Below are positions 791 through 44,773 of a stretch of 64,000 nucleotides of DNA, in pieces. Numbering within the stretch: position 1 is the first letter of the stretch; each line of letters begins with the position of its first letter. Below the pieces are notes generated by a model. The model searched no databases. It saw only the letters and a program-made list of their open reading frames with translations, and was not told where the DNA came from. Both the position numbers and the translations under genes were made by a program. The DNA comes from Massilia sp. W12. GTDB taxonomy: Bacteria > Pseudomonadota > Gammaproteobacteria > Burkholderiales > Burkholderiaceae_D. The DNA is taken from positions 5,026,857 through 5,090,856 of the forward strand of contig NZ_CP147776.1 in assembly GCF_037300705.1 (NCBI RefSeq). The letters are read 5' to 3'.

Positions 791-816
791 ATCTATCCTA
801 ATTAGTTTAATAAAAT

Positions 817-1575: not shown

Positions 1576-1609
1576 TGTTCGCATTGTGTCCTCAATCAAA
1601 AAGGAAATC

Positions 1610-2368: not shown

Positions 2369-2402
2369 TGTTCGCATTGTGTCCTCAATCAAAAAGGAAA
2401 TC

Positions 2403-3161: not shown

Positions 3162-3195
3162 TGTTCGCATTGTGTCCTCAATCAAAAAGGAAATC

Positions 3196-15800: not shown

Positions 15801-15861
15801 AGTCCTGGCGCGTTGCTTCAGTATTTCAGCCTGCTTGACGGGCGCATGCCAGCTGCTTGGG

Positions 15862-16071
15862 CGGACATGGGCGCAAAAAAACCCGCAGCAGCTTGCGTCT
15901 GTGCGGGTTTTTTTACTGCATTGCGGCGGATGCCGCAAAGCTGCTTTATACGCGCTCGAAAATACCAGCCGCGCCCATGCCGGCGCCGACGCACATGGTC
16001 ACCATGCCGTACTTCAGCTTGTTACGCTGCAGCGTGGGCGCCACGGTTGCGGCGCACGCTGGCGCACGCCA
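15862..16071. repeat. Partial tandem duplication (~210 bp) of the 3' end of the fadA/thiolase gene together with its rho-independent terminator.
   Basis: 15862-16071 and 16077-16290 both read ...ccagctgcttgggcggacatgggcgcaaaaaaacccgcagcagcttgcg...gggttttttactgcattgcggcggatgccgcaa.gctgctttatacgcgctcgaaaataccagccgcgcccatgcc... ORF 15946..16215 ends ...LQRNKLKYGMVTMCVGAGMGAAGIFERV, like the thiolase C-terminus. Confidence 0.85.
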
Positions 16072-16094
16072 GCTGCTTGGGCGGACATGGGCGC

Positions 16095-16135
16095 AAAAAA
16101 AACCCGCAGCAGCTTGCGCCATTGCGGGGTTTTTT
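16095..16135. terminator. Bidirectional rho-independent terminator downstream of fadA (GC-rich hairpin flanked by A and T runs). A second copy is at about 15877-15917.
   Basis: aaaaaaaacccgcagcagcttgcgccattgcggggttttttac: an inverted repeat with a T-run on the plus strand and an A-run (a T-run on the minus strand). Confidence 0.6.
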
Positions 16136-16166
16136 ACTGCATTGCGGCGGATGCCGCAATGCTGCT

Positions 16167-17363
<1,197 letters not shown>

Positions 17364-23158: not shown

Positions 23159-23563
23159 TTATTCAAACATGCCTTTTTGATAAAAGGCGCGCGACAGATC
23201 GCGCCTGTCCTGTTTGGTGGGACGGCCCTTGCGTTGCGCGGCGGGTTCGGGGGCGAATTTCTTTTGCTCTGCGACATGCGCCCTTTGCTGGATGGAATCC
23301 GATGTTTCTTCATACAGCAGGCGCGCCACCGGGGCCGGCCCGCGCACATCCGACAGCGCCAGCACCTTGACTTCCCAGCAGGTCGCGCCATTGTCGATCT
23401 GTAACACATCACCGACATGCACCGCGCGCGCCACTTTCACGCGCTCGCCGCCGATTCTGGCGCGCCCGTTTTCAATCGCGGTCGCGGCCAGGCTGCGGGT
23501 TTTGAAAAAACGCGCGGCCCACAGCCATTTGTCGAGGCGGACGGGGGAGGAGTCTTGGGACAT
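23159..23563 (-). CDS. hslR: Ribosome-associated heat-shock protein Hsp15 (S4-domain RNA-binding).
   Basis: VRLDKWLWAARFFKTRSLAATAIENGRARIGGERVK is an S4/Hsp15 signature. 134 aa with a basic C-terminal tail. Confidence 0.8.
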   Translation of the reverse strand: MSQDSSPVRLDKWLWAARFFKTRSLAATAIENGRARIGGERVKVARAVHVGDVLQIDNGATCWEVKVLALSDVRGPAPVARLLYEETSDSIQQRAHVAEQKKFAPEPAAQRKGRPTKQDRRDLSRAFYQKGMFE

Positions 23564-23743
23564 GGGGGGATTCCTGATGCTTGCAGATACACAGAATTTT
23601 ACCCCGATCTGCGGATAAAACAGGGCTGATGTGGTATGCGGATTTCAGTACGCCAGTGTACTGCAGGTGATTTTTTTGCGTTGTTTTGCAGATTCAATTG
23701 AAGCTGTCATAATGAATTACGGCTGTGTCATTTTTCACTCATT

Positions 23744-24328
23744 ATGATACCTGAATTTAACATTTCTTCTGTCTTACCCCCATTTGTCGGGGCAAGCTCC
23801 GCTGAACGTAAGGGGGTATCCCCTTACCGTTGCAGTTCCAATGAGTTAGTCGAACGATTTGCCTGTTCATCAGAGCGGATTCAACTTTTACACGGGTTGC
23901 TGGACTATCGGGCAGATTTGCAGAAGCTGGGAATTATTGAAGGCTGGCAATGGTTGGATGGCAGTTTTGTGGAGGATGTTGAGCGTACTCAAAACCGGTC
24001 GCCAAACGATATCGACTTAGCCACATTTGCAAGGGTGCCAGGCACCGCCAGTCAACAAAAACAATTTGCTCTCGAAAACTTATATCTTTTTGAGCCAGGG
24101 GCTGCAAGGGCAAAGTATGGTTGCGATGCTTATTTTATAGAACTTGGCGTTCGGCCTCAGCTTTTGATAAGCGATGCATGCTACTTACAAGGGCTTTTCT
24201 CTCACCAAAAACAAACGCATCTGTGGAAAGGCATTCTGCAGATTTCTTTAAATACACCTGAGGAAGATGCCGCGGCGCGTCTTTTGCTGCAACAACGCAC
24301 AGCGCAGCATAGGAGGGGCTTATGTTGA
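23744..24328 (+). CDS. Minimal nucleotidyltransferase (pol-beta superfamily fold), 194 aa. First gene of a two-gene cassette in a lower-GC islet.
   Basis: MIPEFNISSVLPPFVG… N-terminus and the NTase signature hG[GS]-x(9-14)-DhD in WLDGSFVEDVERTQNRSPNDIDLATF. Local GC about 45-50%. Confidence 0.55.
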   Translation: MIPEFNISSVLPPFVGASSAERKGVSPYRCSSNELVERFACSSERIQLLHGLLDYRADLQKLGIIEGWQWLDGSFVEDVERTQNRSPNDIDLATFARVPGTASQQKQFALENLYLFEPGAARAKYGCDAYFIELGVRPQLLISDACYLQGLFSHQKQTHLWKGILQISLNTPEEDAAARLLLQQRTAQHRRGLC

Positions 24329-25293
24329 ATAAGCTTGAATACGAAGCGTTGGCAGCCGATTTGGCGGCAGTAAATGCCTTGTTGGCTGATCGTACCGAAG
24401 ATGAGGACCCTATCGGCTGGATGCAATATTCTTTCCGTAAAAAAGAGCTGGAACAAAAATTATCCAAAATGCAGCAGAATCAATTGCACCATGCACAACT
24501 TGGCCTTTTTTTTGGAGGCGGGCCGGTTCTGGGCTCTCGCGGGATACATGCAGATTTCGCAGGTCAAGCCTTGAATATGATGCAAACATTGATCAAAAGC
24601 CGCTGTGCTGAAGTCGAAATGGGGCCGCTCAAACAAAGAGGGAAGTTACCGCAAACTGAGCGTTCTCAATTGATTGTTACGCAAATCCTGCGCGGGTCAA
24701 TTGGCTTTGTTCTGGAAGAGGCGGGTGAGAATTCTGAAATTATCGACACTCCGCTGAAGGAGGTCGTGGATGAAATTTCACAGCTTTTGATCGCAACAGC
24801 TGAGGGTGATTCAATGAAATTTGAGCAGGCAAGCGAATCACTTGATCAGCGCATCCTGAATTCTCTTCGGGGTTTCTTTGCATTGTTGGATGAGCAGGAG
24901 GCAACTCTGCGGATTGTATGTGGTGAGAAAGACTCATCGTTCAATCGAGAGGCGATACAAAGTGCATATCTGCGTTTACAGGCATTGGAAATTCATGAGT
25001 TTTCAAAGGAATTGTGCGGCGTTTTATACGTTAGGCCAGGCAAGCGGGATTTTGAATTGCACTATTGTGATGCGGGGCAGATGGAGAAACTCGATGGCAA
25101 GTTGCTGCCACAAGCCATTGCGCAAATTGCCGGACAGGCAGAATTAGAAGGGACGCAGCTTGATCCAGAGAACATTGTGGGACGCCGTTGGCGTGTTTTG
25201 CTTAACGTTAAAGAATACAAAGAAAGAAAGCGTGAGCGCACCAGCTACGCGCTGCAAAGCCTGCTGGGCTTGGCAGATGAATTGGCGCATTGA
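24322..25293 (+). CDS. Hypothetical 323-aa helical protein, translationally coupled (7-nt overlap) to the nucleotidyltransferase gene.
   Basis: ORF overlaps the upstream stop (24322 vs 24328), with the same low-GC composition. No family motif recognised and no obvious HEPN Rx4-6H. Confidence 0.5.
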   Translation: MLNKLEYEALAADLAAVNALLADRTEDEDPIGWMQYSFRKKELEQKLSKMQQNQLHHAQLGLFFGGGPVLGSRGIHADFAGQALNMMQTLIKSRCAEVEMGPLKQRGKLPQTERSQLIVTQILRGSIGFVLEEAGENSEIIDTPLKEVVDEISQLLIATAEGDSMKFEQASESLDQRILNSLRGFFALLDEQEATLRIVCGEKDSSFNREAIQSAYLRLQALEIHEFSKELCGVLYVRPGKRDFELHYCDAGQMEKLDGKLLPQAIAQIAGQAELEGTQLDPENIVGRRWRVLLNVKEYKERKRERTSYALQSLLGLADELAH

Positions 25294-25476
25294 TCAAAGC
25301 ACTTGAATTCTCTCAGGCCGGCAGGAGTGGCTTCAACCGCGAGCCGGTGCGGGGACAGCGTAAATGCCTTGGCGCCGTCCCTTTTTTCTGACGCACAATG
25401 GGCGCGGGGCGCGCGCGGCCTGCAGCGCGCTCCCCGGCGTATCTGTTTCCATGCAATCCGCCCCCCCAGCCACACC

Positions 25477-28400
25477 TCACTCAGGCCGCTTCACCCCTGC
25501 CTTGTGCTTGCCAACCTCATGCGCCCCGCTTTTTTTGCCGGCTTGCAGTACGCTCAACAGCCGTTTGTCCAACTCACTGATATTGGCCGACATTTCGCGC
25601 ACGCTGTCCCAGATGCTGTGGTCGAGGCGCATTTTGTGGTTCATTGAGCTGAGCATGGGCAGCAGGGTTTGTTCATAGCTTTCCGTCAATTTGAGCAGAG
25701 CCTTTTGCAAGATCAGCTGCTCCGGCACGCTGATGTCAATTTTGGCCGGCATACGCTGCGCCATCGCTTCGATTTGCGCGCTGATGTCGCCCAGCAGATT
25801 GGCGATTTTGGTGGCGCCATCGGCGTCGGCCCCGCCTTGTTTGCGCAGGCGCAGAAAGTCGCTGCACAACTCCCGCCAGCGCGCCTGCTCCTGTGCGCTT
25901 GGCTGTCCCAGCAAATGCGCCAGTTTCAGCAGATTTTCTTCCGCGCCGGTGGTCAGGGTTTGCGCTTCGCCGCGATAGTGGTCGCGCAATAAAAGATCGA
26001 GTTCCGCCGGACTCATCAAGGCGGAAATCCTGGCGGCCAGCTTGGCCATATTCCGGTAACTGCCTTGCAGCTTGAAGCTTGGTTCTGTACGGTATTGCGG
26101 ATCTTGCGCGGCGGAAGCGATGTAGGCCTGGTTCACCGCCAGCACCGCGTCGCGCACCTTGCACATGCGCTGCAAGACTGCGCATATTTCGCTGATTTCC
26201 TGGCTGCTGTAAGCGTGTTGCAATTGGCTGGCGGCAATCGGCTCGCCTTGCGCCATGCGCAACAAGAGTTGCACATCCTGCGGCGCGCGGTTGTTTAAGA
26301 CCTGCAATACCGGATTGGCGACCAGCGCGTTTTCGATATACGACATGGCGAACACATCTTCATGCCCGGACAGCATATCGCCCAGATTATAAATATCGGC
26401 GCGATTGGCCAGCATGTCGGGAATGCGGAACATCTCGCCCGATTCGGTGTAAGGATTGCCCGCCATCACAATCGCAAAGCGCTTGCCGCGCAAATCATAG
26501 GTATGGCTGGCGCCGCGCCAGATCCCTTCGATACGGCGGGTGCCATCGGCTAAGCCGATGAATTTTTGCAAAAACTCGGCATTGGTATGCTGAATATCAT
26601 CCAGATACAGCATCACATTATTGCCCATGGCCAAACCCAGATTCAGCTTTTCCAGCTCCATGCGCGCGGCGCTGTTGGCGGCTTGCGCCGGATCGAGCGA
26701 GCGCACTTCATGCCCTAACACCGGGCAGTTGATACGCACAAAAATCATGCCCAGGCGGTCGGCAAGATATTCCATCAAGGTGGTTTTGCCGTAGCCGGGC
26801 GGCGAGATCAGTAACAGCATGCCCATCGAGTCGGTGCGCCGGGCGTCGCCTGCCGCGCCGATTTGCTTGGCCAGATTGTCGCCGATGGTGGGCAGATACA
26901 CATCATCAATCAAGCGGTTGCGCACAAAACTGGAGAGCGGTTTGGCTTGGAATTGTTCAAGCCGCAAACGCGCTTTTTCTGCTTGCAAGAGTTGCAAGCG
27001 CAAAGCCTGCAATTGCAGATAATGCGGGACATGCACTTGGCAGTGAGATTGCAAACGGCGCACGAATTCATTCAGATGTAAATCCAGACTTTGTTCTTGC
27101 ACGCGCGCATGTTCGCCCAATACATTGCTGATTTTCACACGCAATTCAAGCGCCAGTATGTCGCGCGGTAAGGGACAGAGTAAGGCTGCTGCCGCTTCCG
27201 GCAACACGCTGTCTTGCGTCGCACTGTGCGATGCCGCGCCGCCTTGCGCTGTCAGGCTGGCCAGCCAGGCGCAGGCAAGCTGCCAGCGTTCGGCCAGACT
27301 GAGCTCGGCCGCCTGCCACGGCAAGCTGATTTGATGGCGGCTGAAATGCTGCAATAAATTTTGCATCAAATCGGCGGCGCTGCGGCTCAACACCCATTTG
27401 TGTTCAGCTTTGAAATTGCCGCTGCCCGGATGCTGGCCCAGTTCCGCCAATAAATAACTGGCGGCCTGCTCCAGCGTCAGGGACAGATCCGAGCCGGCGA
27501 AAATATCGCTCTGATCCAAGCCCTGTTGTTGCACAAATTGCGCCAGATTGGCTTGCTGGGTTTTTGTCAATTGCTGCAGCAAGGCGCGATTGCCAAACTG
27601 GCGCCGCATCAGTTCTGCTTGCTGCGCCTGGAGACACAGCGTTTGCGCTGCGACTTGCGGCGCCAGTTGTGTGGCAAGGTGTTGCCAATACAGCAGGGCA
27701 AGCGCGCGTGCGCCGGCGTCGTAGCGCAGCAAACCGGCGCTATCCAGCATCGGCGCCAGGCTGCGCAGAATTTGCACTGCATCGTGGTCATGCAGCCCTT
27801 TTTGATAGCCTTCCTGATAGCGTGGCGCGGCAAATTGCCGTACTTGCATCAGTAACTGCGCGCCATCCACCTCTCGCACTCCGTCTTGCAGCAATTGCCA
27901 AGTCCAGCCTTCACGCCCTTCCTGCGCCGCCAGTACGACTTGCCAGGCCAGATATTCGGCGCGATACACTTGCGCGCTCTCGGCCAGGCTTTGTTGCTGC
28001 CAATACGCTTCCAGCGCTTGCAGGCGCGGTTCATCGACCGGGAAAAAATAATCGGTGCCGGTCAAGTGATAGCACATCTGCTGCTTGTGCAAGACCATAT
28101 TCAGGTCTAAGGGCTGGCTGTTGACGGTGAAGGCGTGGCGCCCCAGGCGTATCGTATTGCCGCTGACTAATTCGGTGCGGTCGCGCAAAGCGCGCTGCCC
28201 CTGTTCGCGCAGATTTTTCAGCTGCCCGGCCAGATCATCGGCGCTGACGTTGCTGCCCAGTTTGCGCAAATCTTGAATACTGCTTTTGAGTTTTGCCACC
28301 AGGGCATCGGCGGCAAAGTACGCTTCCAGTTGCGCCGCTTCAGTAAATTGCTGCAAGCGTTTCGGAATGCTGTGCAAGACGCGTTGCGCGGCGTCGGTAA

Positions 28401-30780
28401 TGGCTTGCACACGCTGCGCGCGCTGGGCTTGCAGACTCTGTTTTCTGGCCTCAAACGTGACATATACGGTTTCACGCTTGGCGGCGATTTCGGCCAGGAA
28501 TTCGGCTTGCTCGGCAAAGCGCCCTTCCTGCTCTTCCAATTGACTCAGCAAACGGGTCAGCAATTCCTCGCAGCGCTCCGGCGTATCGGCTTGCTCCAGT
28601 GCGCTTTCCACTGCCTGCGCGAACAAATTGAACTGCGCCGCAAATTCGCCCGCCGCTTCGTCCTTGCTGAATTGCTGATGACGCTGGCGGACTTCTGCGC
28701 GCAGCTTATTCACATCGGCAAAAATGCTGGAGATGCTCTGCAAAATCCGGGTGCGCAGACTGGCGTCGCTGACCGCCAGACTGGCCAGTAATTCAGTCAG
28801 GCCATTCAAATTCAGGGCGGTGGCTTCGAGTGTGGTTTGCACCGTTTGCAGCTGTGCCGAGGTGTGCAATTTAGGCAATTCCAGCCGATGTCTGGCCAAT
28901 TCCGCAGAAATTTTGGCAAATGCCTGTTCCTGGCTTAAAAATTGCACGGTGCGCTCAGCGACGCGGCTTTCTTCTTCCTGCAATGCCCGGTCCAACTCCG
29001 CCAATTTGACAAGGTCGATGTAACGTTGCTCTTGCATACTGGCTAAGCGGCCACGTTCGAGGCGCAAGGCGGCCAGGGCTTCGACAAAATCGGTCGGCGA
29101 TTGCCAAAGGCGGCTGGCGATCTCGCTCAATAACTGGCGCTGCGTGCTGGCGGTCTGTTGCAACTGCTGTTGCGCCTGGCGTTGTACTGCGGCGACTTTG
29201 TCAAACTCATCAATTGTGCTGTTGGCCACCTCAATGATCAAACCCATTTCCTGGCCAGGCTGATGGGCCGCGTCTTCATTGAGCCAGTGATAGGCATCCA
29301 CGGTGCGGCGGCATTGCTTGATCAAGCTTTCAAACATAAAGCGCGTTGGCAATTTGTCTTTGCCGCTGGCGTCTTGCTCATGCACCAACTTGCAGATCGA
29401 ATACATTTCAGAGATGGCGCGCACCAGTTCGCGATTGCCGATTTTCCCTAAAAAGCTCTGCTTAGGGACTTGTTTGGCGGCGTGCTCTTCGCTCTGAAAC
29501 GGCGTTTGCCAGAGCTGCATCGGGTGGTTACGGGTCGGCTCCTGGTTTTCCGCAGTAAACAGCAAGATGCGGCCATCCGGAAAACGCGCATAGCCATGCG
29601 CGATCATGGGTTGGGACAGTGTTTTATTGATCAGGTTATAGCTCAGCAAGACATAGATGCCTTCCTGCACGCCATAAAACACATACAGCACATCTTCGCC
29701 GTTCGCCGACAGCACGCGGCGCTTGAACTGCAAGCCGGCGGGCATCTCGGTAAATGTCCGGCTTTCACCGCTTTGCAAGGCATAACCGACAGGAAAGACG
29801 ATGCCATGATCCTCGGGCAATTGCACGCAAGATTGCCCAATTGCATCTATCCTGCTCACCTGTTGCAGGCGGCGGTTAAAGATTAAATAGCGATTTTCCT
29901 GCTCGCGATAGGGTTTGATGCGCAACAGAATCAATTCGCCCACACTCGCGTAGGCGATTTCCGCATCGTTCAAAGACTGGTTGCGGTCTGTCACCGGCTC
30001 GCTGTAAATCCCCAAGCCGGATTCGGTATTGTTTTCAATCTTGATCGTCAAATCGCCATCGATGGTCTCGACAAACAGGGTGTCGAGAATATTGATATGG
30101 CTGTGTTTGCCAATGACGTGTTGCTCACGGGTGGTTTTGTGCCATTCAAAGTCATGGCTGGGCGGCAGGGCGATATCGCGTTCGCCGCGATTGTCGATGT
30201 AAGCGGGCTGGCCGGCATCGGCCAGTTGCCAGCGGAACACACGCAAGTCGCTGGCGCGTTCGCCAATTTGAAATGCGGCCAGCAATTTGCCCTGATGCAC
30301 ACGCAATTGCACCAGTTGCGTATTGCGGTAATAGCTGTACAACTCGGTGAATTCGGCGACAAAGCGCGGGTCTGCCAGGAAGCTGCCCTCTATCGGCAGC
30401 GCTTGCAACTCGAATTGATCGCTGTCGCCGGCCTGTTGCAAATGGTACAGGGCAAACACATCGGCAACCTTGGTTTCCTTGCGCAAGCCAATGAACACGT
30501 TGTAGCCGAACAGTAAAACATCGCCGACCAATACCAAATCACGCGCCACGCAATTGTTTTCCGTGCGTGCGCGGGTGCGCGCCAGCAGCCTGGTGTCATC
30601 CCGGCCAAATTCATCGATACGCGCCTGATTCAGGCTTGCGGCCTTTTGTAATAAGGCTTCAGCTTGTTGCGCCAGACGTTGGCGCAATAAATCGAAACTG
30701 CTGGAATGCACGGTCGCGCGTTCGGCCTCAGCTTGGGCGAGGCTGGCGTCTTGCGCAGCGCCGGTTTCAGGAAGACTCAT
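25477..30780 (-). CDS. Giant (1767 aa) multidomain protein with an AAA+ ATPase module (MoxR/AAA_5-like) in the C-terminal third and long predicted coiled-coil/helical regions. It is the last gene of the flotillin-PspA operon.
   Basis: Walker A LLLISPPGYGKTTLMEYLA (nt ~26775-26795), Walker B-like VMLYLDDIQH, and an AAA_5-type GNPY…RIPDMLANRADIY segment. There is a 134-bp gap to the upstream flotillin gene. Confidence 0.75.
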   Translation of the reverse strand: MSLPETGAAQDASLAQAEAERATVHSSSFDLLRQRLAQQAEALLQKAASLNQARIDEFGRDDTRLLARTRARTENNCVARDLVLVGDVLLFGYNVFIGLRKETKVADVFALYHLQQAGDSDQFELQALPIEGSFLADPRFVAEFTELYSYYRNTQLVQLRVHQGKLLAAFQIGERASDLRVFRWQLADAGQPAYIDNRGERDIALPPSHDFEWHKTTREQHVIGKHSHINILDTLFVETIDGDLTIKIENNTESGLGIYSEPVTDRNQSLNDAEIAYASVGELILLRIKPYREQENRYLIFNRRLQQVSRIDAIGQSCVQLPEDHGIVFPVGYALQSGESRTFTEMPAGLQFKRRVLSANGEDVLYVFYGVQEGIYVLLSYNLINKTLSQPMIAHGYARFPDGRILLFTAENQEPTRNHPMQLWQTPFQSEEHAAKQVPKQSFLGKIGNRELVRAISEMYSICKLVHEQDASGKDKLPTRFMFESLIKQCRRTVDAYHWLNEDAAHQPGQEMGLIIEVANSTIDEFDKVAAVQRQAQQQLQQTASTQRQLLSEIASRLWQSPTDFVEALAALRLERGRLASMQEQRYIDLVKLAELDRALQEEESRVAERTVQFLSQEQAFAKISAELARHRLELPKLHTSAQLQTVQTTLEATALNLNGLTELLASLAVSDASLRTRILQSISSIFADVNKLRAEVRQRHQQFSKDEAAGEFAAQFNLFAQAVESALEQADTPERCEELLTRLLSQLEEQEGRFAEQAEFLAEIAAKRETVYVTFEARKQSLQAQRAQRVQAITDAAQRVLHSIPKRLQQFTEAAQLEAYFAADALVAKLKSSIQDLRKLGSNVSADDLAGQLKNLREQGQRALRDRTELVSGNTIRLGRHAFTVNSQPLDLNMVLHKQQMCYHLTGTDYFFPVDEPRLQALEAYWQQQSLAESAQVYRAEYLAWQVVLAAQEGREGWTWQLLQDGVREVDGAQLLMQVRQFAAPRYQEGYQKGLHDHDAVQILRSLAPMLDSAGLLRYDAGARALALLYWQHLATQLAPQVAAQTLCLQAQQAELMRRQFGNRALLQQLTKTQQANLAQFVQQQGLDQSDIFAGSDLSLTLEQAASYLLAELGQHPGSGNFKAEHKWVLSRSAADLMQNLLQHFSRHQISLPWQAAELSLAERWQLACAWLASLTAQGGAASHSATQDSVLPEAAAALLCPLPRDILALELRVKISNVLGEHARVQEQSLDLHLNEFVRRLQSHCQVHVPHYLQLQALRLQLLQAEKARLRLEQFQAKPLSSFVRNRLIDDVYLPTIGDNLAKQIGAAGDARRTDSMGMLLLISPPGYGKTTLMEYLADRLGMIFVRINCPVLGHEVRSLDPAQAANSAARMELEKLNLGLAMGNNVMLYLDDIQHTNAEFLQKFIGLADGTRRIEGIWRGASHTYDLRGKRFAIVMAGNPYTESGEMFRIPDMLANRADIYNLGDMLSGHEDVFAMSYIENALVANPVLQVLNNRAPQDVQLLLRMAQGEPIAASQLQHAYSSQEISEICAVLQRMCKVRDAVLAVNQAYIASAAQDPQYRTEPSFKLQGSYRNMAKLAARISALMSPAELDLLLRDHYRGEAQTLTTGAEENLLKLAHLLGQPSAQEQARWRELCSDFLRLRKQGGADADGATKIANLLGDISAQIEAMAQRMPAKIDISVPEQLILQKALLKLTESYEQTLLPMLSSMNHKMRLDHSIWDSVREMSANISELDKRLLSVLQAGKKSGAHEVGKHKAGVKRPE

Positions 30781-30913
30781 GTCTGGCTATTCCGTGGTGA
30801 AGATTGGACAAAGCTGCACTGTGCGCGATGATATGCCGCCAGGCATGCGGCTGGCGGGACATCATTACGGGCCAGGGGCGTTTGCAGCCTGCCCCCCAGC
30901 CTGGCCACCCGCC

Positions 30914-33088
30914 TTAATTGCCGCTGTTGAACTTGGTCAACAGATTTTGCAAGGCGGCTTTCTGCTCTGCCGAGCCTTCTTTGCTGATTTTGTTCAAAAA
31001 GGCCGTCATCGACAGGTTTTGCAATTCGCCCGCCGAGCCGCCCAGGGCCGCCAGCAAACTGCGCACATCGTTGAGCATGTCGCGCTCGCCGCTTAAATGG
31101 TCTTTCAAACCCAGTTGCAAGGTTTTGCTCTTTTCAATCGCGCCATCAATGCCTTTACCGAGCGCCAGCGCGTTGACGAAGCGCTCAAAATAGTCGCCTT
31201 CGCCGCCCACGATATCAATCTTGGCGTTGGCCAGCGCTTTACCCAGCAACTCGGCTTGATCTTGCGCCACCGAGATTTGCGCTTCGATGCCTTTGACGAT
31301 TTGCTGATTGCTGGCTTCCAATTGCATGCGGAATTCTTCATGGGCGCGGGTTTCGCTGCTCATGCCGGACATGGCTTCAAATTTTTGCCGCAGACCGACC
31401 GATTCAGCAGCAAAACGGGTTTGGATCACATGCGCCTGCGCATCGCCATGTTTGATCATCGCTGCCGCATCTGCGGTTTTCACGGCGGCTTCGGCCAGGC
31501 CCAATTGTTCATTGCCTTGCGCCTGCGCTTGCAACTTCAGGCGCAGCGCTTCGGCCTCTGCCGCGCCTTGTTTGGCTTTGGCTTCGGCTTCGGCAATCAT
31601 GACCTGGGCTTGCGCCTGGCCAATTTGTTGCGTGCCCTTGGCTTGCGCTTCCATTTGCAGGCGGGATGCTTCTGCCTGCGCAGCGCCTTGCCGCAAAATC
31701 GCTTCCGAGCTGGCGATTTTGACTCTGGCTTCCGCCAGGCCTTCTGCCGCCAATTGTGCTTCGGCTCCTTCGGCTTCGCGTTTTTTGGCTTCGGCGGCTT
31801 TTTCCGCCACCTTCAACTGGGCGTCGGCCAGGGTCAATTCCTGCGCCGCTTTGTGTTTCGCGCTGCGCTCCTCGCCTTCAGCCTCAGTCACCGCCAACAC
31901 CATTTTTTCCTGTCCCTTGGCTTCGGCGGCGATCACCAGCGCTTTTTTATTGCGGTCGGCCTCGGCCACCACCCGCACTTCTTTAATCGCTTCCTCTTGC
32001 TCTGCGACCGTGCGCTCAACCACAATGCGCTCGCGGATCACATCGGCAATCGCTTTTTTCTGAATTTCCACCACTTTTTCTTTTTCAATCACTTGCAGCG
32101 CCACTTCTTTTTCGCGCTCGACGATTTCCAGCTGGCGCGCCCGGATCACACGTTCTTCTTCAATCGCCACCGCCCGTTTGCGATTGTTTTCCGCCACTTC
32201 TTTTTCCCGCGTGGTGTTTTCCTGCTGCACCATCACCTGTTGTTCCGCTTGCAGGCGCGCCAGTTCAGCTTTGGCGTGCTCCTCCGCTTGAATTTTCATG
32301 GTTTCCGCCTGCTCGCGCGCTCTTACTGAGCTGACTTCGCGGTTTTGGCGTGATTCGGCATCCGCTTGCTGGCGCTCCAGTTCCAAAATCGCTTCGCGCG
32401 TTTCGACATCTTTTTTCTTGATCCGCATTTCTTCATCGCGCGTCACTTCATTGGTGCGGATATGCTCGACTGCAGTTAATTCGGTAATCTTTTTAATCCC
32501 CTGGGAATCGAGAATATTGCTCGGATCGAGCTTGTCCAGCGGGGTTTGTTCGAGGTAATCGATGGCCGCATCTTCCAGCACATAACCGGATAAATCGTCA
32601 CCAATCTGGCGGATGATTTCATCGCGGAATTTTTCGCGCGATTGGTATAAATCAATAAAGTCCATGCTTTTGCCCACGCTCTTCAAGGCTTCGGCAAACT
32701 TGGCGGAAAACAGATTTTCCAGCGTGTCTTGATGCGATGCGCGCTCGCAGCCAACCGCCTGCGCCACACGCAACACGTCTTCAGCGGTCTTATTGACTTG
32801 AATGAAGAATGTCACCTTGATGTCGGCGCGGATATTGTCGCGGCAAATCAAGCCATCCTTGCCTTCGCGGTCAATTTCGATGGTCTTGAGCGAAATTTCC
32901 ATGTATTCCGCTTTGTGAATAATCGGGTACACCATGCCGCCGGTGAACGTCACATCGGGCTGGGAACGCAGGGTGTTGATGATCAACGCATGACCTTGCT
33001 GCACCTTGTGATAGAACTTGGCGAACATGGCCAACATACCAAACAAGACCAGGGTTCCAATCCCGGCTGACAACAATAAAATGTCCAT
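30914..33088 (-). CDS. Flotillin-like SPFH/band-7 protein with a very long Ala/Glu/Gln-rich coiled-coil (YqiK/FloT-like).
   Basis: N-terminal TM MDILLLSAGIGTLVLFGMLAMFA then an SPFH core, then hundreds of residues of AEAEAKAKQGAAEAE-type heptads. ORF-track start 33232 trimmed to MDILL (33088). Confidence 0.75.
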   Translation of the reverse strand: MDILLLSAGIGTLVLFGMLAMFAKFYHKVQQGHALIINTLRSQPDVTFTGGMVYPIIHKAEYMEISLKTIEIDREGKDGLICRDNIRADIKVTFFIQVNKTAEDVLRVAQAVGCERASHQDTLENLFSAKFAEALKSVGKSMDFIDLYQSREKFRDEIIRQIGDDLSGYVLEDAAIDYLEQTPLDKLDPSNILDSQGIKKITELTAVEHIRTNEVTRDEEMRIKKKDVETREAILELERQQADAESRQNREVSSVRAREQAETMKIQAEEHAKAELARLQAEQQVMVQQENTTREKEVAENNRKRAVAIEEERVIRARQLEIVEREKEVALQVIEKEKVVEIQKKAIADVIRERIVVERTVAEQEEAIKEVRVVAEADRNKKALVIAAEAKGQEKMVLAVTEAEGEERSAKHKAAQELTLADAQLKVAEKAAEAKKREAEGAEAQLAAEGLAEARVKIASSEAILRQGAAQAEASRLQMEAQAKGTQQIGQAQAQVMIAEAEAKAKQGAAEAEALRLKLQAQAQGNEQLGLAEAAVKTADAAAMIKHGDAQAHVIQTRFAAESVGLRQKFEAMSGMSSETRAHEEFRMQLEASNQQIVKGIEAQISVAQDQAELLGKALANAKIDIVGGEGDYFERFVNALALGKGIDGAIEKSKTLQLGLKDHLSGERDMLNDVRSLLAALGGSAGELQNLSMTAFLNKISKEGSAEQKAALQNLLTKFNSGN

Positions 33089-33155
33089 ATTTTTCCTTCC
33101 TGGCTTTGTTAATCGGTATAACTGATGAACCGCAAGCTTCTCTTGCACAAATGAA

Positions 33156-33827
33156 TTAATTGGAACTGTCTTTATCCAGCGCCGCCACTTCGTAGCGCTG
33201 CTTTGTTTCGTCATAGGACAAAATGACAGCAATGGATTTTTTTCGTAAATGATTGGGGGTTTTTGCCCACACCCGGATATTCAGATTGACTCCCGTATCT
33301 TTGACTTCAGCACGGCCAAACTTTTCATCCACCGACAGCGTGGTGATCATGCAGCTCAAGCCGGTCAGGCTGTGATTGCTGCGCGCATGGTGTTTGACAA
33401 ACAATGGGCGCAGCGGTTTGATGGCCAGCGCAGACAAACGGATCGAACAGGCCGCGCTGAGCAATAAAACCATCGCGCCGGCAAGATAACGCAGCACATC
33501 ACTGCCCAACATCTGCAGCAGATATTTATGAATCAGCGCACTCAGCAACCAGGTGAAAAACACCAGCAGGGTCAGGACGATGGACAAGGGCACGCCGCCC
33601 AGGCCGAGCGCCACCAGATATGAGGCCAGCGAGTGCAAATCCGTGCTTTCGGCATGGGCATCAGTATGCAGATGCACATCAGCTGCGCCATCGCCGCTAT
33701 CGAGTTCCAGGTTGTCCCCCAGATCGACCAAGCCGATGATGGAAAACAACCAGTACACCAGCAAAATCGCCAAAAAGATGCCCGGTATGATGGTGGGAAA
33801 ACTGCCGAGCAATTGCCAGAGCGTCAT
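33156..33827 (-). CDS. YqiJ/NfeD-like inner-membrane protein (partner of flotillin).
   Basis: Several TM helices followed by a C-terminal soluble beta-rich segment (…EKFGRAEVKDTGVNLNIRVWAKT…), resembling the NfeD/YqiJ arrangement upstream of the flotillin gene. Confidence 0.55.
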   Translation of the reverse strand: MTLWQLLGSFPTIIPGIFLAILLVYWLFSIIGLVDLGDNLELDSGDGAADVHLHTDAHAESTDLHSLASYLVALGLGGVPLSIVLTLLVFFTWLLSALIHKYLLQMLGSDVLRYLAGAMVLLLSAACSIRLSALAIKPLRPLFVKHHARSNHSLTGLSCMITTLSVDEKFGRAEVKDTGVNLNIRVWAKTPNHLRKKSIAVILSYDETKQRYEVAALDKDSSN

Positions 33828-33830
33828 CCG

Positions 33831-34199
33831 TCACTCCTCTGTAGTCGTGTGAGACAGGCCCGCACCCAATTTAGCGGGTGCGGGGTGCAGCTCTGCAAAC
33901 GCAATCAAGGCTTGATGCAAAGCTTCTTTGACGGCCCGTTTGTCCGTTAATGTTATGCCAAAGCGCTGCGCCAGCAAAGCATAATCGGCTTCGCTCAAAC
34001 TCACGGTGAGGCGTGGCCGCACCGGTTTGCCAAGGCAGGGCAGATTGAGGATTTTGCGGATTTGATCGGAGGGAGAAAGCTGGTTCTCCCAGGCCGCATA
34101 ACGCACCGCCTCAATCACCTGCATCTCAACGTCGAATGCCACTTGCACCGCGCGTATCGCATCATCCGAGCTGCTCCAGCGTGAAGATGTTTTGACCAT
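33831..34199 (-). CDS. Small hypothetical protein (122 aa), possible RHH-like DNA-binding regulator of the operon.
   Basis: Tightly packed between the PspA-like and YqiJ-like genes (2-4 nt gaps). …RPRLTVSLSEADYALLAQRFGITL… is reminiscent of a CopG/RHH beta-strand + helix. Weak. Confidence 0.4.
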   Translation of the reverse strand: MVKTSSRWSSSDDAIRAVQVAFDVEMQVIEAVRYAAWENQLSPSDQIRKILNLPCLGKPVRPRLTVSLSEADYALLAQRFGITLTDKRAVKEALHQALIAFAELHPAPAKLGAGLSHTTTEE

Positions 34200-34200
34200 C

Positions 34201-34920
34201 TCAATCCACTTTCGCTAAATCCGGCCCGGCTGGCGCAGCTTTCGCCTTCAGTCTGGCCATCACCTCGGCTTTTTTGTCTTGCAATTCGCCGATGCCGGCT
34301 GCCGCCAGTTTGGCATCCAGGGCGCGATCACTCAGTTCGCTATCGAGCTGCGCGCGCGCTTGCATGCGGTCGGCATGATCTTGCTGACGTTGCTTGATAC
34401 GCTCCATGGATTCTTTGGCGTTCAGCAATTTCGAGCCGCTGCTGCCCATGCTGTCCTCAATCATGCTGGTGGCGCGGTACACGCTCTCGGTGGTTTTGGC
34501 CATCGCCAATTGCCGCTCATGCTCGCGCAAACTGGTTTCAGCATTCACAATCAAGCCCTTTAAGCGCTGCAATTGCCCGTCAAAAGATTGGTGTGCGGCG
34601 TTTTCTTCCGCCAGTGCGGTTTCCAGGTTGGCGATTTTATTCGCCACCTCCTCGGCCAGCGCGGCTTCATTTTTCTGCAAAGCTTGCAAAGCCTTGTCTT
34701 CATAGTTGGCGATTTCTTTTTGCAAGCGCTCGATTTCGCGCGCACTTTGCATTTGTTTGGCCATCAGCGCGGTTAAGTCCTGCCTGGCTTTGGCGACATG
34801 CGCCTTGGCCTCGACAATTTCCTGTTCGTAAATGGTGGTGGCGTTTTGATCGACCACGCTTTGTCCCATTTCGCGTAAATCGCCCCGCAGCATCGTCAGA
34901 ATTTTTGAAAAGATAGCCAT
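34201..34920 (-). CDS. PspA/IM30-family protein (YjfJ-like paralog).
   Basis: MAIFSKILTMLRGDLREMGQSVVDQNATTIYEQEIVEAKAHVAKARQDL… is a canonical PspA/IM30 N-terminus with a coiled-coil throughout. Confidence 0.8.
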   Translation of the reverse strand: MAIFSKILTMLRGDLREMGQSVVDQNATTIYEQEIVEAKAHVAKARQDLTALMAKQMQSAREIERLQKEIANYEDKALQALQKNEAALAEEVANKIANLETALAEENAAHQSFDGQLQRLKGLIVNAETSLREHERQLAMAKTTESVYRATSMIEDSMGSSGSKLLNAKESMERIKQRQQDHADRMQARAQLDSELSDRALDAKLAAAGIGELQDKKAEVMARLKAKAAPAGPDLAKVD

Positions 34921-34950
34921 GATATAGCCCTCCTTAATTAGTGCAGATTT

Positions 34951-35403
34951 TTAAACACTCAGTAAATATTCAGCGAACACGTCCAATGCTTCCAAGGCAT
35001 TGTCGGCCAGCATCACCACATCATGCGCCACATCCTCCACCCTGGCGTCTGTCGCCAGGGCGCCGAAAATCACATAATGCTGGCCGATGCGGCCAAAGTG
35101 AGAGAGCGGAATCGCCACATTCAAATCCAGCATCGCCTCGTGCATTTCACTGCGCCGCGCAGGATTGATTTCAGCTTCGCGCCACAGATAGCAAATGCAC
35201 AAAATCTGGCTTGGCGACACCGTGACAAAAACCGGTAATTCTTCACGGTTTTCAATGCTGATGCGCAACACCGGGACGGTTTGCGCATCAGCGGCGGGCA
35301 ACTTGGAGACAGAAAACGACGTTGCGCCTAATCGTTGGCCCAGGGCCTGTTCCAAACCGGATAGCTGCCCGGAAGCTTGGCCCGGTTCATTCATTTCAAC
35401 CAT
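34951..35403 (-). CDS. YjfI-like (DUF2170-type) protein, first gene of the operon.
   Basis: 150 aa and acidic, immediately upstream of the PspA-family gene as in enterobacterial yjfI-yjfJ. Confidence 0.5.
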   Translation of the reverse strand: MVEMNEPGQASGQLSGLEQALGQRLGATSFSVSKLPAADAQTVPVLRISIENREELPVFVTVSPSQILCICYLWREAEINPARRSEMHEAMLDLNVAIPLSHFGRIGQHYVIFGALATDARVEDVAHDVVMLADNALEALDVFAEYLLSV

Positions 35404-35697: not shown

Positions 35698-36764
35698 GAA
35701 ACTATAACAACTCAACCGCAGGAACCCCCTCTGCAAGCATTATAGCTTTCCGGGGTGAGAGAGGAAACTATAACCGCCACACCGTGTACTGATCAGCAAA
35801 CTCAATTATAGCTTTCCGGGGTGAGAGAGGAAACTATAACATTTAATGATGCCGGAAAACCTGCCGAAAAATTATAGCTTTCCGGGGTGAGAGAGGAAAC
35901 TATAACCGTCGCCAAAGTGGAAGCGCAAGAAATTGGATTATAGCTTTCCGGGGTGAGAGAGGAAACTATAACATGAGCGAAAGCGGAATCGTCTCCGTTC
36001 TCATTATAGCTTTCCGGGGTGAGAGAGGAAACTATAACAATTTGACGGGCAATTTCCTCCTCCGCAAGATTATAGCTTTCCGGGGTGAGAGAGGAAACTA
36101 TAACTTTCCATGCCTAAAGCCTGAGTCAAGCTGTATTATAGCTTTCCGGGGTGAGAGAGGAAACTATAACTGGTGCGGTAGCAATTATTTTGTTGATAAT
36201 ATTATAGCTTTCCGGGGTGAGAGAGGAAACTATAACCGTCAAGATGTCGCTCAGCGCAGTCGAGCTATTATAGCTTTCCGGGGTGAGAGAGGAAACTATA
36301 ACCCTCGCCGCGCGCCTGTATGCGATGGTGGAATTATAGCTTTCCGGGGTGAGAGAGGAAACTATAACCATCGCCGCGCTGTCCTCGACTCGGTTGCGAT
36401 TATAGCTTTCCGGGGTGAGAGAGGAAACTATAACTGTTTTTGCGTTTTGTTTTGCATATTGTTTATTATAGCTTTCCGGGGTGAGAGAGGAAACTATAAC
36501 TTCCTCTTCTTCTTTGACTTGTGATATTGTATTATAGCTTTCCGGGGTGAGAGAGGAAACTATAACGCGCTTGGCGCTGGCCGTGCGCGGCTCCACATTA
36601 TAGCTTTCCGGGGTGAGAGAGGAAACTATAACCTGTCATGCGGCGGCCTGCGGCTTGTATGCATTATAGCTTTCCGGGGTGAGAGAGGAAACTATAACCC
36701 CGATGCCGCAAGCGAGCCGTCCCCACGGATTATAGCTTTCCGGGGTGAGAGAGGAAACTATAAC
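35698..36764 (-). CRISPR. CRISPR array 1: 16 full 36-bp repeats plus one 11-nt repeat stub, about 30-bp spacers, type II-C repeat. It is inverted relative to array 2, so crRNA sense is the minus strand.
   Basis: Repeat ATTATAGCTTTCCGGGGTGAGAGAGGAAACTATAAC (plus-strand reading) at 35739, 35805, … 36729 with a 66-bp period. The 16 spacers are all different. Confidence 0.95.
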
Positions 36765-38134
36765 CCATTCCATTACACACAACTCAGTCTTGCAATGCGC
36801 CCATCTCGCGTAGAGTCCTGATTGTCTGAGCCGAAACTTGAACATCCTGTAGACCTCGCCAGATTGTTTTCACGCCAGGCTCCCCGTCATGTTTTCGTGC
36901 GAGAAAACCGCCGACACGGGCTACCATGCGCAACACCTCGTTCAAGCCCGGCATAGCGGGCGCCTTCTTTTTATTGAGCAGATAAGCCGCTCGGATTTCG
37001 TCGGGATCGAAGAACAAAGTGGCGTCGAGATCCGGACAGGTACGTCCCTTACGCATCAGGTACGCGATACGCCAGGCCACCACCATAAACAGCGCCAGCG
37101 CCCGCTCCAGCCGGGCCATGGTGGACAGTTGCAGTTCTTCGACTTCACAGCCATTCTTGAGCACATTGAAAAAGATCTCAATTTCCCAGCGCGCGCGATA
37201 CCAGTCGATCAGTTCGCTGGCGTCGGCCAAGGTTTCCGCGCGGCGGTTGGTCAGCAAGCGCCATTCCACCGGTTTGATGCCCGTCGGCGGCTGCACTTCG
37301 GATGCTACGATGCAGGTCGCCTCGATCTTGCCGCGCTTGCCATCACGCAGCAGAACGCGCTTGGCCCACACCTGCTGACGTACCTGGCGCGCCCTTTGCT
37401 TGCCGCGCCCGGCCATGATGAAGCTGATCTCGCCCAGCGGCATACCGGCCGTGGTTTCAGGCCACAGGCGTTTGCTTTCGCCGTCAGCCAGACAGCGATC
37501 ATGCTTGGCGCGCACCAGCCAATCGGCAGGCGTGCCCAATTCGGCTGCGCGCCGCAGCATTCCCATCATGTCCGCTTCGCGGTCAGCCACATACACCAGA
37601 CGGGTATTGGGCAACTGGGTCGCCTGCTCGGCGACCCGCTCGTAGCCCTCTATCCAGCGTTCACTCTCTTTTACGCTGGCGGGGCGCTTGCCGTCAGCGC
37701 CACGCTCTTCACGCGCCCACATCCAGCCATCGAGCAGGCCCAGCGGCTCACGCTCTGGCGACACCGCGTAGGTCGGATGCACATACATGCCGCGCCGCGC
37801 TTCGTAGTTGAGCGGGCCGAGGCCGTCGATGTTTTGGCCGCTGAAGTCCAGTTCGGTGGTGTCCTGAATGCACAGAATAACCTTCTGCGTCGCCATGCGT
37901 TCCATGGTGCGCGCCCAATGTGGCGCCAGAATGCCATCCCATGTCACCTCCGGATTGGCCATAAAGCGGTAGGCCGCTTGCGTCTCCGTCCAGTTGTCGC
38001 ATGCTTCGGGAATGCTGGCCTTCGGTTTGGTCGCGAATGTTTCCATCAATTTTCTCGCCCTGTTGTTAAGGCGGGCATCGCCAAGATCGAGTCCGCCAAA
38101 CTCATCGTCGGTCCAACTCTGTGCTGCTTGCTTT
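36765..38134 (-). mobile_element. IS4-family (Tn5/IS50-like) element, 5'-truncated by the IS3 insertion. Transposase CDS 36784-38134; the ORF-track N-terminus to 38289 is read-through into the IS3 end.
   Basis: The transposase reads …LGDARLNNRARKLMETFATKPKASIPEACDNWTETQAAYRFMANPEV… (parallels the Tn5 Tnp N-terminus) and …YRARWEIEIFFNVLKNGC… (the YREK signature of the IS4 family). The first ~50 codons of ORF 36784..38289 are identical to the IS3 end sequence. Confidence 0.75.
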
Positions 38135-39017
38135 CCGGAGCGTGTCAAGGTAGTTGTCGCAAAAAATCGATTAAGCAACCATGCGCTGGTCCAGCTTTGA
38201 TGGCGGATTAAGCCAGACCTCATTGGGCGCCAGCCAGGGCCGTGTATGACGCTTCCAGCGCAGCGGATGGCGTTGCCGGGCTTCGGCATAAACGTCGCGT
38301 CGGCGCTCCAGGATCACATTGGCGGCGCCCGTATGGCGCTGCTCCGGCGTCACATAGGCCAAGGCGCTGTGCAAATGGGTGCAGTTGTACCAAGTCACAA
38401 ATTGCAGTGTCCAATCCCGAGCCTGCGCGATGCTCTCAAAGCCTTTGGCTGGATAGCTGGGCGCATATTTACAGGTGCGGAACCACGCTTCGATATGGGC
38501 ATTGTCATCGGAGACGCCAGGCCGGCTATGCGAGGAGCCGATGCCCAGCATTTCCAACTTGCTCTTGAGCGTGTGCGAAGTTTGCGCAGCACCGTTATCG
38601 GCATGCAGCACCAATGGCGTGCAGCGGCGCTGTTCACGCCAGCAGGCGCGCTCAATCAGTAAAGCAGCTTCCTCACCATTTTCCCGCTCGTGGACTTCCC
38701 ATGCGACCAGTTTGCGGCTGTAAATATCGAGCACGGCATACAGATAAAAATACTGGCCGCGCACCCGGCTGGGCAGGTACGTCACGTCCCAGCTCCAGAC
38801 CTGGTTGGGGCCATGGGCGACATGGCGCACCGGCTCGCTGGCCACAGGAGCCTTGCTGCGACCCCGGTGATGCTGCTGGTCGGCGCTTCTCAGCACACGA
38901 TAGAACGACGATTCCGATGCCACATACGCTCCCTCGTCGGCCAGCCGCGGCACGATCTGCGCTGGCGGCAAATCGGCAAAGCGCGGTTCATGACACAGTT
39001 GCAGGATGCGCTGACGT
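38135..39017 (-). mobile_element. IS3-family copy C, left part. It carries the orfB C-terminal 266 codons (38171-38971) and the left IR. Copy C is split by insertion of copy B, and its right part is 40668-41433.
   Basis: 38135-39017 is identical or near-identical to 39018-39900 of copy B. ORF 38171..38971 equals residues ~84-349 of the copy-B OrfB. Confidence 0.85.
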
Positions 39018-43833: not shown

Positions 43834-44772
43834 TCACGCCCCGCACTCCGTATCAAATAATGCCCCCTGCCGCCCCTGCGCGTCGATGCAAGGCAGGCTC
43901 AAGCGCGCCTTGCTGTCGCCTTCCAGCGCGCGCACCAGACTTTGCACGCTTTGCTCCAGCGCCGCCAGCACAGTGCAGCGCCCTGACTGTGTTTGCAGCG
44001 GCACATCCTGGTGCAGAAAACTGATCAATTGCGCCTTGTCTTGTGGCGTCAGGCTGGCCGCCTGTTCTTCCGGGTAATGGCGTAAAACCCAGGCGTCCAG
44101 CAGCGGGCGCCAGGGTTCTATCATGTCGTCGGCTAAATTAAAGGCATTGAATTCATTGCAATGGTGCAGGCCATGCGCCGGCAGCAGGCCGGCGGCGCAT
44201 AAGGCGCGCGCCAGCGCAGCGCGCACGATGGCGTAGGCATAGTTCAAGCCGGCGTTCCAAAAGCGTTCATCGCCACGCCGGAAGTCGCGCCCAAACAGCG
44301 CCAGGAAATATTTTTGCGCCGCTTGCGCTTCCAGATTATCCGGGTCGCCGGAGCGCACGCGCGTCGCCAATTCCTGTAAGTGCGCCGCGCTTTGCGTCTG
44401 GCCGTGCAGGGCCAGTACGCAGGCTTGATTATCAATTTTCTGTTTGATGATTTGCTGCCACAGGCGTTTTTGCAGCGGCGCGCCAGCCGCCAATTGCAGA
44501 CGCAATACGCGCAAAAAGCGGAAATGCGGGGTGAAGGGCAGCAACATGCCATTCGGCAAATGCTGGCCATTCACCGTGATCAGGGCGATTTGCTCCTGCG
44601 ACAACGCCGCCAGCAGGGCCGCGCTGAGCGTGACTTGCGGCTGATCCAGCACCAGCGCCGCAATATCTTCCAACGGCACTTGGGCGCTGCCGGCATCCTG
44701 CTCAATCAAGAGGCTGCGCTGGCGCAGGGCCAGACGGGCCGGCTGGCTGATCAATACGCTGCGCCAGCCCAT
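43834..44772 (-). CDS. cas1: CRISPR-associated endonuclease Cas1 (type II-C).
   Basis: Internal start MGWRSVLISQPARLALRQRSLLIEQDAGSAQVPLEDIAALVL… closely parallels the Neisseria Cas1 N-terminus (MTWRS…LEDIAV…). It has …AQAAQKYFLALFG…. The ATG lies 1 nt from the cas9 stop. Confidence 0.9.
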   Translation of the reverse strand: MGWRSVLISQPARLALRQRSLLIEQDAGSAQVPLEDIAALVLDQPQVTLSAALLAALSQEQIALITVNGQHLPNGMLLPFTPHFRFLRVLRLQLAAGAPLQKRLWQQIIKQKIDNQACVLALHGQTQSAAHLQELATRVRSGDPDNLEAQAAQKYFLALFGRDFRRGDERFWNAGLNYAYAIVRAALARALCAAGLLPAHGLHHCNEFNAFNLADDMIEPWRPLLDAWVLRHYPEEQAASLTPQDKAQLISFLHQDVPLQTQSGRCTVLAALEQSVQSLVRALEGDSKARLSLPCIDAQGRQGALFDTECGA

Positions 44773-44773
44773 A

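Follow-up and report, generated by a model that had tools for sequence, protein, structure and literature searches.

A widespread DUF6932 nucleotidyltransferase–partner gene pair in Massilia sp. W12: a mobile cassette and candidate phage-exclusion module

We examined a two-gene cassette of Massilia sp. W12 that lies in a 64,000-nt stretch of contig NZ_CP147776.1 (positions 5,026,857 to 5,090,856); this whole stretch is here called the window, and its own numbering is used throughout. The first gene encodes a nucleotidyltransferase (NTase) of the DUF6932 family and the second a partner protein that belongs to no curated family. A check of the open reading frames (ORFs) listed for the window places gene 1 at 23744–24328 (194 amino acids, aa) and gene 2 at 24322–25293 (323 aa), both on the plus strand and overlapping by 7 nt, just as an earlier note made from the letters of this DNA had described. 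The two genes are translationally coupled: the junction (24311–24328, plus strand) contains an AGGAGG at 24311–24316, placed 5 nt 5′ of the gene 2 ATG at 24322, and ends with the gene 1 TGA at 24326–24328. Related loci with unambiguous starts likewise have an abutting or overlapping pair (about −17 to +9 nt), commonly with an overlap of 4–8 nt. Both products are 100% identical to hypothetical proteins of Massilia sp. W12, V8J88_20505 for gene 1 and V8J88_20510 for gene 2.

Gene 1 is a divergent minimal NTase of the Pol-beta fold. It matches Pfam DUF6932 (PF22014) over positions 1–141 of the 142-position model, with 107.2 bits (cut-off 27) and an E-value of 1.2e-30; no other Pfam family was found at E up to 1, and NCBIfam gave no match. 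It also matches PHROG 9194, whose function is unknown. The Pol-beta signature picked out in the earlier note is present, reading WLDGSFVEDVERTQNRSPNDIDL (23960–24016, plus strand), with G73-S74 followed after 14 residues by D89-I-D91; a third carboxylate, D128, is encoded at 24125–24127 (plus strand). Eleven positions (G73, S74, E77, E80, R85, D89, D91, H154, W161, K162 and G163) are invariant among 35 homologues, in at least 90% of which D128 is kept, and a set of 83 relatives drawn from genomes and prophages retains G73, S74, D89, D91 and D128 at 94% or more each. The conservation of these catalytic residues makes it probable that the protein is an active enzyme. Its AlphaFold model is confident (predicted local distance difference test score, pLDDT, 90.1) and has only NTases as top structural neighbors, the closest of which include the MntA-type proteins 5yep, 8xeh and HI0073 (1no5), while single-sequence and profile searches found no solved structure related to gene 1 by sequence.

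The gene 2 product (24322–25293, plus strand) is soluble and acidic, with an isoelectric point of 5.15 and no transmembrane segment (maximal 19-residue Kyte-Doolittle hydropathy 1.06). Searches by single sequence, by profile and member by member found no match to it in Pfam, NCBIfam, PADLOC or the sequences of the Protein Data Bank (PDB), and a Pfam scan over 32 homologues yielded scattered chance-level matches only. It does match PHROG 18731 (E 3.6e-23), another family of unknown function. Its own family comprises 46 clusters in a word-seeded search and 1260 clusters at 50% identity in an exhaustive profile search, and is uniform in length (about 310–330 aa). Neither Pfam nor PADLOC recognizes a toxic, effector or sensor domain (e.g., SAVED, STING, TIR) in gene 2, and the Pfam search found no helix-turn-helix (HTH) or autoregulatory domain in either protein. 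Gene 2 is not a fragment of a known enzyme. The earlier note had been unable to place this partner, and the Pfam, NCBIfam, PDB and profile searches bear it out as an unclassified and, as described below, obligate one.

The AlphaFold model of gene 2 is also confident (pLDDT 84.8, predicted template modeling score 0.76). It comprises a helical hairpin (residues 3–52), a central alpha/beta domain (residues 59–133), an acidic helical segment (residues 144–191, family median net charge −8) and a C-terminal beta-barrel like that of the oligonucleotide/oligosaccharide-binding (OB) fold (residues about 223–317; 24988–25272, plus strand), the terminal hairpin of which is basic (residues 286–318, family median net charge +5). 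No whole-protein structural match was found in the PDB. The barrel resembles OB-fold single-stranded DNA (ssDNA) binders at Foldseek probabilities of 0.97–0.99, with E-values of only about 1e-2, and the gene 2 profile has no sequence similarity to the E. coli single-stranded DNA-binding protein. Structure prediction thus gave an NTase fold for gene 1 and, for gene 2, an OB-like barrel and no HEPN domain. As modeled, gene 2 is neither all-helical nor HEPN; the earlier description of it as a helical protein gives way to a mixed alpha/beta fold with a C-terminal beta-barrel. The accompanying statement that it has no HEPN Rx4-6H motif fails to the letter, as two such strings occur, at residues 218 and 242, the latter in a predicted strand of the barrel with H247 kept in 11 of 104 relatives. 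The rejection of HEPN itself holds, mainly on the mixed fold and the lack of any HEPN family match.

Conservation in gene 2 is centered on the central domain, with its two motifs FFGGxPVxGSRGI and RGSxGFxLEE. The first, a Gly-rich strand and loop reading FFGGGPVLGSRGI (residues 63–75; 24508–24546, plus strand), has F64, G66, P68, V69, G71, S72, R73 and G74 invariant in 32 homologues, and F64, G66, V69, G71 and I75 kept in at least 95% of 104 relatives. The second, RGSIGFVLEE (residues 124–133; 24691–24720, plus strand), is a beta-hairpin holding the most conserved polar residues of the protein, S126, E132 and E133. Each of F64, G66, V69, G71, G125, S126, G128, L131, E132, E133, R39 and R177 is retained in at least 90% of the 104 relatives. 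Two Gly-rich loops of the GSxG type and an EE pair mark the central domain, and motif 2 is still recognizable, as GSFGFELQEA, in a distant homologue on a Pseudomonas aeruginosa plasmid.

A pattern scan for gene 2 in one genome from each of 185,579 species found 127 relatives, of which 80 loci were kept. The relatives span Alpha-, Beta- and Gammaproteobacteria, Bacteroidota, Acidobacteriota, Nitrospirota, Planctomycetota, Spirochaetota, Cyanobacteria, Gemmatimonadota and others. The NTase and gene 2 form an obligate pair, gene 2 almost never being found without the NTase. An NTase sequence lies directly upstream on the same strand in all 74 gene 2 loci with upstream DNA; it is intact in 70 and frameshifted, stopped or truncated in four (L009, L015, L039 and L079). 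The pair is likewise present in 36/36 viral loci centered on gene 2, and a viral scan centered on the NTase found gene 2 downstream in all 54 loci with room for it. The co-occurrence of the two genes across genomes, raised in the earlier note, is therefore firm from both directions. The P. aeruginosa plasmid also carries both, with an NTase 31% identical to gene 1 and, beside it, an overlapping 301-aa ORF that is a gene 2 homologue (hhalign 99.2%, E 3e-19). No domain fusion was found: three over-long homologues, of gene 1 (P0275, P0240) and of gene 2 (P0171), were inspected and, judged by eye, look like mis-called starts or frameshifted tails.

The neighborhoods of the pair were clustered, and no conserved third gene was found. 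After the pair itself, the commonest neighbors are tyrosine integrases (28 + 8 loci) and CI-like repressors (27 loci). The genes that flank the cassette in the window are common to none of 116 related loci. With no conserved third gene and with variable flanks, the pair is not in core-genome synteny; such synteny had been named in the earlier note as grounds against its reading. The pair is found on plasmids of Paraburkholderia, Methylobacterium, Bradyrhizobium and Pseudomonas and on a Ralstonia megaplasmid, and its GC content is under that of its flanks in nearly all related loci. As a separate observation, DUF6527 proteins occur among the ±2 neighbors in 4 of the genome loci L001–L080 and are the most recurrent family there after the integrases.

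The composition of the window shows the same contrast. GC content is 0.45–0.48 throughout 23550–25200 in 300-nt windows, and the low-GC island around the cassette (23600–25300, no strand) has a GC content of 0.471 in the composition profile, against 0.60–0.64 in the immediate flanks, 0.55–0.62 in the wider flanks and a mean of 0.563 for the window. GC content at third codon positions (GC3) is 0.43 in gene 1 and 0.48 in gene 2, compared with 0.67–0.73 in four flanking genes. The drop in GC that the earlier note had seen is therefore real, though its 62–65% for the flanks was slightly high. Taken as a 1.55-kb segment, the cassette is only 1.5 standard deviations under the window mean, because a second island of even lower GC occupies window positions 1–5000. 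Horizontal acquisition, as the note had proposed, is supported by the anomalous GC3, by the 0/116 loci sharing flanks and by a GC content of the pair that falls below that of the flanks nearly everywhere. As an operon of two genes, the cassette is self-contained and horizontally mobile. In the window it is a lone insert of about 1.7 kb: no integrase accompanies it, no direct repeats of 8 nt or more bound it, and no tRNA gene that might have served as an integration target was found within the window.

Among viral loci the pair has a recurrent position. Of 85 viral loci, 40 (about 39/78 once contigs fetched twice are removed) have a co-oriented CI-type repressor (HTH_3 + Peptidase_S24) at a distance of no more than 400 nt on the upstream side. 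In the RefSeq annotation of E. coli CE10, cro is followed divergently by a LexA-family repressor, DUF6932 and a hypothetical protein, with cIII and kil further on; this version of the pair (WP_024201976 and WP_001081279) is present at 99% identity or more in 8 of 5426 complete E. coli genomes. In lambdoid prophages the pair is directly downstream of the CI repressor and co-oriented with it, which is the slot of rexAB in lambda. Prophage accessory loci that are transcribed in lysogens, rexAB and bstA among them, are known to occupy the interval from the repressor to N (PMC7067206). This CI-adjacent position gives comparative support for a role in conflict or abortive infection. A search of the 50,697 sequenced phage genome records in INPHARED gave no match to either protein; every occurrence found lies in a cellular replicon or in a viral contig that is integrated or metagenomic.

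We compared the pair with known systems. Its sole PADLOC match is PDC-M63A, the first component of the PADLOC candidate PDC-M63, a two-gene (A+B) system with a DUF6932-like NTase as in gene 1. The match is homologous and low-scoring (E 1.7e-13, 48.8 bits, model positions 25–150 of 152), and gene 1 with its relatives gives E-values of 1e-10 to 1e-13 and about 39–49 bits over most of the model, so on these scores gene 1 may represent a sister clade of PDC-M63A. The B component never matches: PDC-M63B was found neither in gene 2 (PADLOC, E up to 1) nor in six of its relatives, E. coli prophage versions included (E up to 0.01), the sole PADLOC match among those six being to a type II methyltransferase model and no better than chance. 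Membership in PDC-M63 is thus ruled out, although PDC-M63AB of E. coli NILS69 is likewise prophage-borne.

MNT-HEPN (MntA-HepT, type VII toxin–antitoxin) resembles the pair in having a GS...DxD minimal NTase encoded first and an overlapping partner gene. Gene 1, however, is about 70–90 residues longer than the MNTs (about 100–130 aa), has no MNT Pfam match and separates GS from DxD by 14 residues, where the MNTs have about 10, and gene 2, with its mixed alpha/beta fold and OB-like barrel, is not HEPN and has no family-conserved Rx4-6H. AbiE and MenAT are two-gene conflict modules whose catalytic component is, as in this pair, an NTase of the Pol-beta fold. The MenT and AbiEii NTases transfer nucleotides onto tRNA and arrest growth. 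Gene 1 differs in having no AbiEii/DUF1814 match and in coming first, the reverse of their order; gene 2 has no winged HTH of the AbiEi type; and a solitary NTase is tolerated in the present family. Cyclic-oligonucleotide-based antiphage signaling systems (CBASS) have a two-lobed cGAS/DncV-like NTase (CD-NTase) of about 300 aa or more and an effector with a cyclic-nucleotide sensor domain, both absent here.

RexB is a membrane protein, whereas neither protein of the window pair has a transmembrane segment. With rexAB, which is likewise a two-gene unit, and with bstA of Salmonella prophage BTP1 the pair shares slot and orientation, downstream of a CI-type repressor and before the N/cIII/kil side (PMC7067206); there is no relationship in sequence or fold to either, so the likeness is positional only, and the PADLOC Rex models gave no match. 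In Hailong (HalA-HalB) an NTase is joined by a partner that binds, and is gated by, the oligo-dA product of the NTase (PMC13434031). The likeness is that of a two-gene NTase operon in which gene 2 has an OB-like domain suited to oligonucleotide binding. HalA, however, is a transmembrane ion channel and gene 2 is soluble; HalB makes protein-primed oligo-dA, and no Hailong NTase is among the best structural neighbors of gene 1. AbiE, CBASS, Rex and Hailong membership were all rejected, their defining parts being absent (for Hailong, as judged by partner topology and structural neighbors).

Both genes of the pair occur in decayed form. Frameshifted or prematurely stopped NTase genes were found in L079 (9418–9989), L015 (9300–9824) and L009 (1170–1716), and gene 2 in these three loci is full-length and keeps all 17 conserved residues despite the broken NTase. 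The genome that carries L079 is that of an isolate, Acidisoma sp. L85, whereas L015 and L009 are from metagenome-assembled genomes; the broken genes may be real pseudogenes or assembly errors. On the other side, an intact NTase is found with its partner absent or broken in L119 and L116: a solitary NTase occurs in Rhizobium lusitanum, and the partner in L116 is broken. With both genes subject to decay, neither protein resembles an addictive toxin and both appear to be needed. The decayed copies hint at a system that requires both parts, and weigh against a classical toxin–antitoxin pair.

From these comparisons we propose, with even confidence for and against, that the pair is a mobile, obligate NTase-based phage-exclusion module of the abortive-infection type. 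In lysogens it would be expressed along with the repressor, as rexAB and bstA are, and would protect the lysogen from other phages. The NTase and gene 2 would form one two-subunit enzyme, in which the OB-like barrel would supply a nucleic-acid-binding or sensing surface that the minimal NTase lacks. Upon infection the complex would transfer nucleotides to a nucleic-acid 3′ end or to a protein target, by analogy with MenT/AbiEii acting on tRNA, and so would arrest growth or phage replication; both proteins would be needed and neither would be a constitutive toxin. We prefer a two-subunit NTase because the only recognizable catalytic center is that of the NTase and the only binding module the OB-like barrel; taken alone, this mechanism is rather doubtful. 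The broadest form of the proposal is that DUF6932 NTases and their partners of about 315 aa (PHROGs 9194 and 18731) constitute an unnamed, widespread anti-phage system, carried by lambdoid prophages where lambda has rexAB, in which the minimal NTase and a new OB-barrel sensor protein act as the two subunits of one enzyme; its mode of immunity would be distinct from those of MNT-HEPN, AbiE, CBASS and Hailong. We advance it tentatively, as possible and a little short of an even chance.

Several observations weigh against the phage-exclusion proposal. The ±2 neighbors of the pair in the 80 chromosomal loci are heterogeneous and mostly ordinary, many of them housekeeping genes; defense genes (DpdF, a type I methyltransferase, Avs3, PsyrT, mad2) are only scattered among them, along with integrases and HTH proteins, so that the enrichment in defense islands that the earlier note had looked to is not demonstrated. 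In the window the cassette sits between hslR (Hsp15) and a DUF3686/SPFH/PspA cluster. The note had put it in the same defense neighborhood as a CRISPR locus; that locus is real, but it is more than 10 kb away, past stress-response genes, and the neighbors elsewhere being mostly non-defense, the argument is a weak one. No recognizable effector domain was found, and PDC-M63AB of E. coli NILS69 gave no defense phenotype in the one published test. No paper in the library searched deals with DUF6932, PF22014, the PHROG identifiers or any of the E. coli accessions. Examples of decay are few, some being from metagenome-assembled genomes in which frameshifts may be assembly errors, and it is by inference that we assign a substrate, a trigger and the direction in which one protein acts on the other.

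The same facts can be read in other ways. Most chromosomal neighbors are not defense genes, the related PDC-M63AB showed no defense when tested, and about half of the viral loci have no S24-type repressor directly upstream; on these grounds the pair might be a non-immune accessory of mobile elements, for example a two-subunit modifier of nucleic-acid ends or of a small molecule that serves replication, repair or lysogeny control, or else an anti-defense factor. We consider this improbable: the repressor-adjacent, co-oriented slot points to expression in the lysogen rather than in lytic growth and its known occupants include exclusion systems, neither gene matched the 50,697 sequenced phage genome records, and the cassette occurs alone without a surrounding element, as in the window. 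The earlier note had suggested a toxin–antitoxin or abortive-infection module, and the second half of that suggestion is the one that gains from the CI-adjacent slot. A type VII-like toxin–antitoxin or addiction system, in which the upstream NTase is an antitoxin that nucleotidylates the partner toxin, as MntA does HepT, and in which loss of the element or interference by a phage frees the toxin, would fit the NTase-first order and 7-nt coupling, which match MNT-HEPN operons, as well as the MntA-type structural neighbors of gene 1 (5yep, 8xeh and HI0073). Also in its favor are the small size, mobility and plasmid carriage of the pair, the tolerance of a solitary NTase by Rhizobium lusitanum, and the invariant Ser/Thr residues in the Gly-rich loops of the partner (S72, T120, S126), which could accept a nucleotidyl group. 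The partner, however, has no HEPN fold, family-conserved Rx4-6H or other recognizable toxic domain, an HTH or autoregulatory domain was found in neither protein by the Pfam search, and L079, L015 and L009 have a broken NTase beside a full-length, conserved partner, unexpected if the partner alone were lethal; with decay on both sides the classical form of this reading is unsupported, and we give it a slender chance.

The broken-NTase loci also bear on signaling of the Hailong, Panoptes or CBASS type, where the NTase would make a nucleotide ligand (possibly short ssDNA or RNA, or a protein-primed homopolymer) that the partner binds through its barrel or Gly-rich loops, the appearance or destruction of the ligand on infection switching the partner on. 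An inhibitory ligand predicts that loss of the NTase is toxic, whereas there are loci in which the NTase is broken and the partner intact; moreover, gene 1 at 194 aa lacks the second lobe of CD-NTases, and the partner has no transmembrane segment or known effector or sensor domain (SAVED, STING, TIR). The basic OB-like C-terminal barrel does suit oligonucleotide binding, the two conserved GSxG loops and the EE pair could form a phosphate- or nucleotide-binding site, and the two-gene Hailong system, with its oligo-dA gating of the partner, is a precedent (PMC13434031). We judge signaling of this kind to be quite unlikely.

NTase conflict systems (MNT-HEPN, AbiE/MenT, CBASS, Hailong) have each revealed a different immunity chemistry. 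The present pair adds a partner family without curated domain, solved relative or known effector that is nonetheless large (1260 clusters) and tied to a catalytically intact NTase. Natural versions in E. coli lambdoid prophages make the phage-exclusion hypothesis directly testable in a standard host with standard phage panels. If it is true, the pair is a new defense family, probably with a new NTase substrate or regulatory logic; a negative outcome would warn that a pair of the "NTase plus unknown" kind need not be an immunity system.

Upstream of gene 1 we noted two minor features. A candidate sigma-70-like promoter (TTTGCA, 17 nt, TG-CATAAT; 23685–23713, plus strand) ends 30 nt 5′ of the gene 1 start; the consensus scan gave 2 sites in the region, where chance alone would give 1.6, and the promoter is therefore a candidate only. 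A repeat search of the window found an imperfect inverted repeat (23702–23752, plus strand) with 14-nt arms that are 86% complementary, one arm lying over the predicted −10 box and the other over the gene 1 start codon. The repeat might serve as an operator or form a 5′ hairpin that masks translation.

Directly downstream of the cassette is a minus-strand cluster (25477–35403) encoding a 1767-aa DUF3686/DUF7902/AAA protein, a 772-aa SPFH (Band 7) protein, a 223-aa ORF without family, PspA/IM30 and DUF2170. It gave only insignificant PADLOC matches and looks like a membrane-stress module. Past it lies a type II-C-like CRISPR-Cas9 locus, starting 10.4 kb from the cassette, with cas9 at 44774–47956 and cas1 at 43834–44928 (both minus strand) and arrays of a 36-nt repeat at 41434–43441 and 35739–36765. 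The two array pieces have mutually reverse-complement consensus repeats, and between them are a Tn5-type transposase (36784–38289) and IS3-type rve ORFs (38171–40604); this arrangement suggests that the array was split or inverted through insertion sequence activity.

Two tandem repeats were also seen in the window. At 818–3990, within its lowest-GC part (GC 0.37–0.42; a stretch of about 1–5000), are four tandem copies of a unit of about 793 bp that are 62–100% identical. The minus strand there has three overlapping ORFs of 306 aa, which are staggered because 793 is not a multiple of 3. At 15841–16276 are two tandem copies (94% identical) of a 221-bp unit with a terminator-like GC hairpin followed by a T-run.

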